A stretch of DNA of 64,000 nt from Asterias rubens (GCF_902459465.1 NC_047066.1:6633047-6697046); one strand, 5' to 3'; positions 44,258 through 53,362 are shown, counted from the first letter of the stretch. A program made the numbers and translations. The notes: generated from the letters alone by a model not told the origin.

Positions 44258-44369
44258 ATGGCCGTCTTACTGAAAATGTCAACCTTGTTACATCGTGTAA
44301 CTGTAATGGTGATTATAGTTGCCACTTTAGGAATTAAACTCGAAGCTTCTCCGCTATCACATGTAAAAG
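44258..44369 (+). CDS. Protease exon 1 ([37 protein letters not shown], signal peptide)
   Basis: ATG at 44258. Donor is aag|gtttgt, phase 1. The hydrophobic core is signal-peptide-like. Confidence 0.6.
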
Positions 44370-47300
44370 GTTTGTGAACTTATATAACTATTTAGGAACA
44401 AAATGATGTTTCATGATCCCGGCAACAATGTCGCTATCATTGAAACGGCAGGTTGTTGCTTCTGATTTAATTTCTGTACAGTCATGAACAAACGCATCAA
44501 TAGGCAAAACAACCGTCTTAGAGTAACAGAGTAGTTGGTGTTTTTAAAACGAATACAAGAGTTTTACTTGGAATATCTTTGGTGATAATATTGTCAGCCA
44601 TATATTTGAACCCACTCAGTATTTCCTAAAGAGGATGCAGTTTTGAATAGTATGCCTATACACGACCAATCCTTGAATCATGGTACAAAATCAAAATAGT
44701 AGAGCCAACCAATAAAAAAATAACACTTTTTAAATCAACATAAAATAGCAATACTGAATAAATCGGTTATAAAAAAAAATCGGGGAAAATGTCTGTATCC
44801 TGCCACCACTTTTTCATTCGTTATGAAATAAAATAAGATATTCCAATTGGTATAAGTAAAACAAAAAAGTGGTGTTAGGATATGGACATTTCAAAATTTT
44901 GTCTTAGTGATTGATAACACCCTATTTCGGGTTGTTTTGTTTCCTTTTGGTATATCCCTAGATAAATCCCGAAACTGTGGTCTGAACGGCTTTACCTGCA
45001 GCGATGGTACGTGCATTGAAGCAAGCATGCAGTGCGACTGGTATTACGACTGCAACGACCAAAGTGACGAACATCAACATTGCAAATACACAGGTAAATC
45101 TACGTTTTTTATTATGCAAGTTCGCCCAAAACAAGGCTAAAAGCCACCCTTTGTATGGGGCTACAGGAAGAATAATTATTTAAAAAGTGGGGAAAAAAAA
45201 TCAAAAAAAATCAGGGAGCTTAAAGACAGTGGACACTATTGGTAATTGTCAAAGATTAGTCTTCACAGTTGGTGTATCTCAACAAATGCATAAAATAACA
45301 AACCTGTGAAAATTTGAGCTCAATCGGTCGTCGAAGTTGCGAGATAATATAGAAAGAAAAAAAACACAATTGTCACACAAAGATGTGTGCTTTCAGATGC
45401 TTGATTTCGAGACCTCAAATTCTAAACTTGAGGTCTCGAAATCAAATTTGTGGAAATTACTTCTTTCGCGAAAACTACATTACTTTAGAGGGAGACGTTT
45501 CTCACAATGCTTTAAACTATCAACCTCTCCCCATTACTCGTAATCAAGTAAGGTTTTATGATAATAATTGTTTGAGTAATTACCAATAGTGTCCACTGTC
45601 TTTAAGGTAGGAATTGATAACCTGGAAAAGTTTCCGTATGGCGCCACCAATTTTTCACCACCTCAATGAGATATCCCTTTTTGTAAAACTGAGTGAAAAA
45701 GTGGTGGCGTCATACGGAAAGTTATCCCGAGTTACTCCGAGCGTTTCGTGAAATCAACTGCCAGCCAAAAATATTCAGTACGTGGTATAAAGCTGTTGGA
45801 ATGGCTCCTTGTTCAGCAAATCAAGAGCGTATGGGGTGTATGGGTGAGAAGAAGTGTAACGAGTATATATCACAGGCAAAATGGTTGTAATTTGTTGGTT
45901 ATGTAACAAGGACTCGGTAGGCAAAAAAACTAGCATGTCCCTATAAACCGGCACTGCGCCGACATTGGGCAAGCTACTTGTGCCGACATTGGACACGTAG
46001 CGTTCTGGTCTCTTGTACATGATAATAGGCATTCGTATGGAGTTTGTTTTTATTATGATAACGGTGGGGAACAGGGAAACAGTCGACTGTACAAAAATTG
46101 ACAAATATTGTCATTACACCAGCGTGACTAGAAAGGATAATCATACAACAATTAATTATGTTTTTCTTTCTGGCAATTTCTGAGTTTGTAAGTAGAAAGA
46201 ATCGCAGGTTATTTTTTTAAAACTTACTTTCATGTGTGCTGTGGTGTTATATAGCCTTTGTGAAAGACTCTGCTAGGGTTGACATGTCGGGTCATTAACT
46301 ATTTTGTGCATTTTATGCTATAGGTCATTTTGGTTGGTGAGAAGTTTGCAACAGCCAATTCTATTTTCTTTTTACCTACATTTTGGCAGTAAAATTTGCC
46401 AAACTTTTTTGTTCACAAAACAAAAATAAACCTAAAAAGTTTAAAACTTAACATTCTTTGTGTCTTTAAGGGCTTGTAAGATTTAAATTTTATTTTGATT
46501 AAAACATTTTTGATGGCAGGATTTACTTGTGAGGATGGACAGGGACTTGTTGCTGATGCGTGGTTGTGTGATGGCCAATCAGACTGCCAGGATAACTCTG
46601 ACGAAAAACAGGAAAACTGCAGTAAGTACAGTTTAAAGTAATTGCAATAAAACAACTTCAAAAACACCGTCAAACAAACACAAAGCAAATATAGAGGGTG
46701 CTTTACTCCTAGAAATTTAAACACATTTCGTCAGAATATAGGTATGTCCAATTGCTGCATTTCTTTTTAAAATATGAAATATATATTTATAATACAAGTT
46801 ATTATGCATCAATCAAATCAAATTTAATTTAATTGGCACATATTGCACCATTTATAAGGTGAAATTATGTGACAATTTCAATTACACAGAATAATAACTA
46901 CTTTTCACAAAAAACTTCAAATCATAGTATCTCTTTGAGCTGGAATTTATACAACTTTTATTTGTAGTAATTTTGAAGCGTGCATGTGTGAACAGGTTTG
47001 AATTCCAAGTTTCAATTTCACTCTCGTATACAAAGTCTACTTGACATCTAAACAAATTTGTATTGCTATTTATCCCACAAGGGACAGATTTAAATCCATT
47101 GTAAAGGTTTTGTTTTCCCCTTTTCACCATTTTTGTTATCTGTGCAGTCAAGCCAAAGTGTGATTCAAGCAAGTGTGACAACGGCACCGTATGTTTGGAC
47201 GATTCTCAAGTATGTGACGGAGTAAAAGATTGCCAAGATGGGTCAGACGAGGAACAAGAAGACTGCGACAGCATGAGGGCTAGTAAGGAAACCCTCATAG

Positions 47301-53300: not shown

Positions 53301-53362
53301 CATACTACCAACAATGGATTGATAATCTCATATTTGAGCACGGCGTTCAACCTGATAATTAA
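44258..53362 (+). CDS. Secreted mosaic serine protease: signal peptide, 5 LDL-receptor class A repeats, thrombospondin type-1 repeat, trypsin-like catalytic domain. 567 aa, 11 exons: 44258-44369; 44962-45093; 46520-46621; 47148-47282; 48359-48472; 48619-48738; 49182-49367; 50444-50648; 51786-52051; 52643-52791; 53180-53362.
   Basis: The LDLa repeats have the CxxxxFxCxxGxCIxxxWxCDxxxDCxDxSDE pattern, one repeat per phase-1 exon. TSP1 reads [25 protein letters not shown]. The trypsin domain has the RVIGG activation site and the catalytic triad [14 protein letters not shown] and GDSGGPLVC. All introns are GT-AG and the total of 1704 nt is in frame. Confidence 0.8.
44962..45093 (+). CDS. Protease exon 2 (LDLa repeat 1)
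   Basis: Within plus ORF 44907..45140. Acceptor is ccctag, donor is cag|gtaaat. Confidence 0.8.
45223..45600. mobile_element. MITE family A copy (protease intron 2, opposite orientation)
   Basis: The TIRs gacagtggacactattggtaatt at both ends were read directly. Confidence 0.75.
45612..45725. mobile_element. Hairpin MITE family E copy (protease intron 2)
   Basis: Same arms as 4739-4870. Confidence 0.75.
46520..46621 (+). CDS. Protease exon 3 (LDLa repeat 2: [34 protein letters not shown])
   Basis: Acceptor is ggcag, donor is a|gtaagt. Confidence 0.8.
47148..47282 (+). CDS. Protease exon 4 (LDLa repeat 3)
   Basis: Overlaps plus ORF 47195..47479. Donor is gtaagg. Confidence 0.75.
48359..48472 (+). 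CDS. Protease exon 5 (LDLa repeat 4: [37 protein letters not shown])
   Basis: Acceptor is ttatag, donor is gtaaga. Confidence 0.8.
48619..48738 (+). CDS. Protease exon 6 (LDLa repeat 5)
   Basis: Acceptor is tttgcag, donor is gtaagg. Confidence 0.8.
49182..49367 (+). CDS. Protease exon 7 (TSP1 repeat)
   Basis: WxxW motif plus the CSxTCG core. Confidence 0.8.
49497..49755. mobile_element. MITE of about 260 bp with TIR CACAGATTTACATTAAACTTACAC (protease intron 7). Related partial copies are at 47925-48100 and 12850-13140.
   Basis: The termini cacagatttacattaaacttacac ... gtgtaagtttaatgtaaatctgtgg were read directly. Confidence 0.75.
50444..50648 (+). CDS. Protease exon 8 (activation site RVIGG and catalytic His)
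   Basis: Within plus ORF 50437..50652. Confidence 0.82.
50890..51112. repeat. Tandem repeat, 2 copies of ~110 bp (..tgcaataggatagtattgtgcgtggcaaggagggagcgagcagggggaacgcaatagatgagtga.. / ..tagcaagacgatagttatgtgcgcggtgaggagggagccagcggggggtcgggatagttgagtga..)
   Basis: Read directly. It lies in protease intron 8. Confidence 0.7.
51786..52051 (+). CDS. Protease exon 9 (catalytic Asp region)
   Basis: Within plus ORF 51796..52065. Confidence 0.82.
52125..52262. mobile_element. Family C SINE copy (protease intron 9)
   Basis: tttttacccatacaccgatgtgtgttagcactgtatactcagtactttccagaatcc...ggcagtttgaatcc. Confidence 0.65.
52643..52791 (+). CDS. Protease exon 10 (...[15 protein letters not shown])
   Basis: Within plus ORF 52471..52935. 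Donor is cag|gtagga. Confidence 0.78.
53180..53362 (+). CDS. Protease terminal exon ([47 protein letters not shown]...*)
   Basis: Within plus ORF 53087..53362. Acceptor is ctttcag. Confidence 0.85.

Follow-up and report, generated by a model that had tools for sequence, protein, structure and literature searches.

A stretch of 64,000 nucleotides (nt) of the Asterias rubens genome (GCF_902459465.1, NC_047066.1:6633047-6697046; the window, with positions counted from its first letter) contains, at 44258-53362 on the plus strand, an 11-exon gene for a serine protease that carries five LDLa modules, one TSP1 module and a trypsin domain. The gene is real and correctly delineated, and the comparative data indicate that it is very probably the A. 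rubens orthologue of the sea urchin cortical granule serine protease 1 (CGSP1). The likely overall explanation is accordingly that of a cortical-granule protease which would be secreted as a zymogen and act at fertilization. An earlier sequence-only reading of the same DNA had described the module architecture and suggested an undescribed immune or developmental protease. The architecture stands, and the novelty does not: the 567-amino-acid (aa) translation matches RefSeq protein XP_033628045.1 of A. rubens with 100% identity and 100% coverage, so that the gene is already annotated and public, and its sea urchin counterpart is a characterised protease that has been cloned as cDNA and studied experimentally.

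Gene structure and domain architecture

Joined together, the 11 exons (Table 1) yield a 1704-nt open reading frame (ORF) that encodes 567 aa and a stop codon, and all ten introns have GT-AG ends. The RefSeq protein, mapped onto the window independently by exact spliced mapping, returns the identical exon set. From exon 1 to exon 11 the phase series runs 0-1, six times 1-1, 1-2, 2-1, 1-0 and 0-0, with exons 2-7 each starting and ending in phase 1. Pfam finds in the complete protein a full-length Trypsin profile (PF00089; E=3.4e-62, 210.6 bits, residues 318-554, profile positions 1-220), Ldl_recept_a in five stretches (E=2.6e-38) and TSP_1 at residues 251-296 (E=1e-09). When the exons are translated singly, exons 2-6 all score above the Ldl_recept_a gathering score (27.2-45.0 versus 24.1 bits), as does exon 7 for TSP_1 (45.2 versus 21.6 bits). 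Exon assembly and single-exon searches thus bear out, to the base, the earlier proposal that each of five LDLa modules occupies its own phase 1-1 exon, and the Pfam matches and motif positions do the same for the TSP1 exon followed by a four-exon trypsin domain with an intact triad and an activation site. The agreement of gene model and domains with observation is far beyond chance.

One module per symmetric phase 1-1 exon is the classic pattern of mobile extracellular modules (Patthy's rule), and the S1-domain intron phases 1-2-1-0 are textbook for chymotrypsin-family genes. With its LDLa and TSP1 modules each in an exon of this kind, the starfish gene does not differ in principle from the exon organisation of the LDL receptor family and is a standard example of it; the exon-shuffling architecture recognised in the sequence-only reading is in keeping with this pattern. 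That the exons belong to a single gene, rather than to different ones, is indicated indirectly by two homologues: CGSP1 (AAD37426.1) was cloned as a single cDNA spanning all domains, and an echinoid homologue of 576 aa (P0005) lies on an intron-free assembled contig of 1879 nt.

The five LDLa modules share the acidic CDxxxDCxDxSDE Ca2+-cage motif, and LDLa-5 is the best conserved among them. LDLa-2, encoded by exon 3, is N-terminally shortened and has four cysteines (Cys) only, with Cys1 and Cys3 absent and CDGxxDCxDxSDE intact. LDLa-4 has a Cys1-Cys2 spacing of two residues, and both of these modules cover only the C-terminal 30 positions (8-37) of the 37-position profile. LDLa-3 carries N127, the sole N-x-S/T sequon of the protein. 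At the N-terminus, 13 uncharged residues (V14-I26) lie between R13 and K27 and are followed by KLEA/SP, an A-x-A-like site; judged by inspection rather than with a dedicated predictor, this arrangement fits a cleaved signal peptide, and the hydrophobic run of 13 residues appears too short to serve as a membrane anchor.

Judged by its sequence, the protein belongs to peptidase family S1A (chymotrypsin fold). Specifically, the catalytic triad is intact, with His363 in TAAHC, Asp414 in NDVAIL and Ser510 in GDSGGP, and Asp504 lies in the S1 pocket, six residues N-terminal to the catalytic serine, which argues for trypsin-like Arg/Lys specificity. The activation site reads KR/VIGG (residues 316-321), and exon 8, the first trypsin exon, additionally encodes the activation peptide and a linker in which Cys304 lies. 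The triad, the pocket Asp and the activation Arg together predict an active, autoactivatable trypsin-like protease. Among solved catalytic domains, the closest is that of hepsin, followed by plasma kallikrein and TMPRSS2/6/11D. In the hepsin alignment (184 bits), which takes in CG..R/IVGG, the linker Cys, the R/IVGG site and the Asp189-type pocket all align, and Cys304 and Cys435 correspond to the two hepsin cysteines whose bond links the pro-region with the catalytic chain.

Orthology to sea urchin CGSP1

The best match in Strongylocentrotus purpuratus is a protein of 581 aa (P0008; 42% identity, 99% coverage, 538 bits), whose 90%-identity cluster contains Q9XZM7/AAD37426.1 and NP_999636.2, both named cortical granule serine protease 1. 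In the reverse direction, a local phmmer comparison with CGSP1 gives 543 bits for the starfish protease and 286 and 230 bits for the A. rubens paralogues P0045 (LDLa, weak TSP_1, Trypsin) and P0054, which makes CGSP1 and the starfish protein reciprocal best matches among the sequences compared. CGSP1 has the same Pfam order of Ldl_recept_a, TSP_1 and Trypsin. The correspondence extends to the gene level: the S. purpuratus gene (L001 10001-19300) likewise has 11 exons with an identical phase series, and its exons 5, 6, 7 and 10 equal those of the starfish gene in length (114, 120, 186 and 149 nt).

Further agreement comes from the fine structure of the modules. Across the ten echinoderm orthologues aligned, every LDLa-2 has the four-Cys form with both Cys1 and Cys3 missing, and the activation Arg (Arg317) is invariant; LDLa-4 reads CFxCD in most of them, with CLYCD in Antedon and CWACD in Anneissia. 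CGSP1 therefore resembles the starfish protein in domain order, four-Cys LDLa-2, activation Arg and exon phases alike. Best matches with the same three Pfam families occur in every echinoderm class. They include the asteroids Patiria (56% identity) and Acanthaster (57%), the crinoids Antedon and Anneissia, the echinoids Diadema, Lytechinus and Strongylocentrotus, the holothurian Apostichopus and the ophiuroid Amphiura, and a sequence at least 90% identical to the starfish protease exists in A. amurensis. In a neighbour-joining tree built on 236 columns of the protease domain, CGSP1 sequences of asteroids, ophiuroids, crinoids and echinoids form one group with the starfish protein, and the A. 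rubens paralogues fall outside this group.

Weaker relatives are found in hemichordates and amphioxus. Proteins of Glandiceps (P0036, P0137), Saccoglossus (P0048) and Branchiostoma (P0050, P0053) also combine LDLa modules, one TSP1 immediately N-terminal to the linker and an S1 domain of related sequence; they may or may not be one-to-one orthologues. The amphioxus proteins have an added CUB domain that the starfish protein lacks, and in Glandiceps P0036 the module aligned with LDLa-2 has the canonical six Cys, unlike the four-Cys starfish form.

Several points weigh against the assignment to CGSP1 and the function drawn from it. The reciprocal comparison covered only the retrieved A. rubens paralogues and not the whole proteome; it was used because the A. 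rubens protein was missing from the results when the database was searched with CGSP1 through a word index, apparently a prefilter miss. The CGSP1 clade has a bootstrap value of only 61.5%. Patiria shares the neighbouring genes, S. purpuratus does not over a distance of 10 kb, and the urchin has two tandem CGSP1 copies where the starfish window has one. Starfish and sea urchins diverged more than 450 million years ago, and the proposed function is drawn from orthology at an identity of only 42-44%. Additionally, Oulhen and colleagues reportedly described in 2013 that starfish and urchin envelopes differ in how permeable they are and in when the granules are made, so that the role of the protease may differ as well.

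Proposed function at fertilization

The available data favour a model in which the starfish protein acts much as CGSP1 does. According to a preprint, CGSP1 is released from cortical granules and cleaves the p160 tether (bioRxiv 10.1101/369504), and both envelope elevation and the polyspermy block are described as protease-dependent (PMC12691429, PMC2990714). By analogy, the starfish protein, with a putative signal peptide at its start, then five LDLa modules that presumably bind Ca2+, one TSP1, the linker that carries Cys304 and finally the trypsin-like S1 domain, would be made in oocytes as a zymogen and kept inactive in acidic cortical granules. Ca2+-triggered exocytosis at fertilization would then release it, and it would autoactivate at seawater pH. 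Given Asp504 in the S1 pocket, the Arg317-Val318 bond should be one that the protease can cut itself. Once the bond is cut, the LDLa/TSP1 arm would, if the hepsin alignment is a guide, stay bound to the protease through Cys304 and Cys435. As in the urchin, the targets may be few: the p160 tether by which the vitelline layer is held to the plasma membrane, the enzymes ovoperoxidase and beta-1,3-glucanase, and the protease itself. Cleavage of p160 would allow the vitelline layer to lift. More speculatively, the LDLa/TSP1 arm could dock, in a Ca2+-dependent manner, onto envelope or tether proteins rich in CUB and LDLa.

Much of this scheme follows what is said of the urchin enzyme. In 2004, Haley and Wessel are said to have found that CGSP1 is kept inactive by the low pH inside the granule and activates itself at the pH of seawater, and that its substrates also include ovoperoxidase and beta-1,3-glucanase and not the structural envelope proteins. 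That the cortical-granule role is conserved in starfish is, on this analogy, reasonably probable. A literature search for starfish work on a CGSP1-like protease returned nothing specific. The developmental half of the earlier immune-or-developmental suggestion holds in a broad sense, given a likely role at fertilization, and the immune half is without support.

Alternative explanations

The database names point elsewhere. XP_033628045.1 is called 'suppressor of tumorigenicity 14 protein homolog' in RefSeq, and its orthogroup contains this name as well as 'transmembrane protease serine 3(-like)', which would make the protein homologous to matriptase (ST14) or TMPRSS3 and place it, as a type II transmembrane serine protease (TTSP), on the surface of somatic epithelial cells. 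This view could also draw on the ranking of the solved catalytic domains given above and on vertebrate ST14 and TMPRSS9, which are the top non-ambulacrarian matches; furthermore, vertebrate TTSPs (hepsin, TMPRSS2/3/6/9, ST14, corin and enteropeptidase) resemble the starfish protein in having a related S1 domain with LDLa upstream of it, and share the S1 intron phases 1-2-1-0. The vertebrate matches, however, have identities of 31-40% and extend over only 43-86% of the starfish protein, and in the tree vertebrate TTSPs branch outside the ambulacrarian and amphioxus sequences. Neither the SEA domain (PF01390) nor the two CUB domains (PF00431) that lie upstream of the LDLa modules in ST14 are found by Pfam up to E=1, and true ST14 matches possess both types; there is no SRCR-type match as in TMPRSS3/hepsin-type TTSPs, the corresponding position being held by TSP_1, which TTSPs lack next to the protease; and the Frizzled domain (Fz, PF01392), present in the corin matches themselves, is missing along with SRCR. 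The sole hydrophobic segment (residues 14-26) is N-terminal with the A-x-A-like site next to it, and inspection reveals no type II membrane anchor and no cytoplasmic tail. An epithelial transmembrane protease is therefore extremely improbable, and the RefSeq names are automatic best-hit labels that mislead.

A humoral immune protease is a very unlikely alternative too. Here the protein would be a complement-like factor or a ModSP/HP14-like initiator, with an LDLa/TSP1 arm that senses microbial or damage signals in the coelomic fluid. LDLa and TSP1 are indeed found in factor I and in complement C6-C9. Drosophila ModSP, Manduca HP14 and Tenebrio MSP, zymogens that are secreted and activate themselves, begin with four or five LDLa modules and end in an S1 domain, with one small module between them. 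The insect proteins, however, have Sushi/CCP before the protease where the starfish protein has TSP1, and they serve immunity through the Toll cascade, not fertilization. Pfam detects no FIMAC or SRCR, as factor I would require, no MACPF, as C6-C9 would, and no Sushi/CCP or CLIP; the 120 best matches include no arthropod protein, ModSP/HP14 among them, and no protein of the complement system, which argues that the architecture shared with the insect proteins is convergent and arose through module shuffling. Masquerade-like serine protease homologues, which have disulfide-knotted (CLIP-like) modules and an S1 domain made non-catalytic by a replaced active-site Ser, were rejected because Ser510 is intact in GDSGGP and no CLIP match exists. 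The likeness to complement factors, corin and masquerade seen in the sequence-only reading thus reflects the widely shuffled modules that these proteins have in common and does not extend to the domains that define their families. In addition, the orthologue that has been studied experimentally is an egg protease.

Two further possibilities accept the kinship with CGSP1 and vary the function. The protein could be a true CGSP1 orthologue with a shifted role in starfish, such as remodelling of the oocyte-follicle interface or jelly coat, hatching or modification of the larval matrix, with envelope elevation left to another protease such as P0045. The existence of P0045 and P0054 as related paralogues on the same chromosome, the two tandem CGSP1 copies of S. 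purpuratus and the reported dissimilarity of starfish envelopes speak for such a shift. Across all five echinoderm classes, however, the protein has kept its architecture, its activation site and its specificity pocket, and the gene its exon structure, which argues for a conserved core function, and no observation in the analysis favours another role; a shifted role is accordingly unlikely. It is also conceivable, though again unlikely, that the LDLa-TSP1-trypsin architecture, which hemichordates and amphioxus have too, marks an ancient deuterostome protease for egg-coat remodelling, of which the starfish member acts differently from CGSP1 in substrates or timing and uses the four-Cys LDLa-2 as a docking module. 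Such a difference could arise because starfish are fertilized during meiosis and have a reportedly more permeable envelope. The cortical-granule CGSP1 orthologue thus remains the preferred explanation.

Genomic neighbourhood and repeats

No second copy or paralogue of the protease was found elsewhere in the 64-kb window. Upstream and head-to-head with the protease gene lies a tocopherol-cyclase-like gene, the two start codons being about 1.6 kb apart. Its protein of about 377-379 aa has a signal-like N-terminus and corresponds to RefSeq 'uncharacterized protein LOC117290107'; the homologues, all of them unnamed, come from echinoderms, one hemichordate and molluscs, and LOC117290107 is a member of an animal tocopherol-cyclase-like family. 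Downstream follows a lactate/malate-type dehydrogenase gene. Upstream of the cyclase-like gene are exons of the major vault protein (MVP), and an ORF at 26966-27316 resembles the MVP C-terminal coiled coil, with no Pfam match.

The order of cyclase-like gene (minus strand), protease gene (plus) and dehydrogenase gene (minus) is the same in Patiria miniata by tblastx. The Patiria orthologue of the protease is flagged 'LOW QUALITY' in RefSeq, with a corrected sequence. In S. purpuratus, the two tandem CGSP1 genes, on the same strand and about 8 kb apart, encode 580 and 581 aa (L001 1-1811 and 10001-19300; AAGJ06000002.1), and the gene after them belongs to the Cpn60_TCP1 family. Within asteroids, then, microsynteny is kept, and at the 10-kb scale it is not seen across classes.

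Within intron 9, a decayed tandem copy of the intron end and the first approximately 36 coding bases of exon 10 is present (52445-52535 versus 52569-52697), with 86% identity to the start of exon 10 over 36 nt; a small duplication left this pseudo-exon behind. An inverted repeat (53404-53547/53877-54020) begins 42 nt past the stop codon and has 144-nt arms that are 79% complementary, with a spacer of 329 nt. This repeat probably represents a foldback or MITE-like (miniature inverted-repeat transposable element) sequence in or near the 3' untranslated region. Introns 2, 4 and 7 contain more inverted-repeat elements, for example 49490-49533/49719-49762. By eye, 49900-50050 in intron 7 and 51170-51260 in intron 8 look tRNA-derived and similar to short interspersed nuclear elements (for example ggtccagtggttagactgcaggacttgcaatcacaaggttgtgggcttgaatcgcc); ARAGORN and Rfam made no call at either place. 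Further upstream, a long CT/GA dinucleotide microsatellite at about 11700-12300 of the window appears as (SL)n in spurious ORFs. Scans for tRNAs, Rfam families and tandem repeats found nothing relevant.

Table 1 Exons and sites of the protease gene and neighbouring genes, in window coordinates
Feature	Position	Strand	Phase	Content
Exon 1	44258..44369	+	0 to 1	Start codon and signal-peptide-like N-terminus
Exon 2	44962..45093	+	1-1	LDLa-1, six Cys; Ldl_recept_a 43.3 bits, E=4.3e-11
Exon 3	46520..46621	+	1-1	LDLa-2, four Cys; 36.1 bits, profile positions 8-37
Exon 4	47148..47282	+	1-1	LDLa-3; 27.2 bits; carries N127
Exon 5	48359..48472	+	1-1	LDLa-4, six Cys; 40.1 bits, profile positions 8-37
Exon 6	48619..48738	+	1-1	LDLa-5 (RCW.GAF.C); 45.0 bits
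Exon 7	49182..49367	+	1-1	TSP1, WSSWSFW, six Cys; TSP_1 45.2 bits, E=1.1e-11
Exon 8	50444..50648	+	1 to 2	Linker, activation site, start of protease domain, predicted catalytic His363
Exon 8 sites	Cys304 50452-50454; Arg317/Val318 50491-50496; His363 50629-50631	+		
Exon 9	51786..52051	+	2 to 1	Predicted catalytic Asp414 51919-51921; Cys435 51982-51984
Exon 10	52643..52791	+	1 to 0	S1-pocket Asp504 52780-52782
Exon 11	53180..53362	+	0	GDSGGP with Ser510 53186-53188, SWG motif, stop 53360-53362
Tocopherol-cyclase-like gene	exons about 42631-42115, 41670-41048	-		Two exons; Pfam Tocopherol_cycl 45.5 bits, cut-off 26.6
Major vault protein exons	about 26900-34100	-		ORF 33637-34035: two Vault repeats, E=2.9e-35
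Ldh_1_N/Ldh_1_C-family (lactate/malate) dehydrogenase gene	55621-59576	-		Downstream of the protease gene; exons 74-94% protein identity to the Patiria miniata gene

Implications

With a public gene model and a well-studied family founder, the locus has little significance beyond housekeeping. The RefSeq labels 'ST14 homolog' and 'TMPRSS3-like' should be replaced by CGSP1 orthologue. The locus also provides a clean teaching example of phase 1-1 module shuffling and of a gene structure kept between sea stars and sea urchins. For the biology of Asterias, whose oocytes are a classical cell-biology system, the protease is a candidate gene for the cortical reaction and the block to polyspermy.

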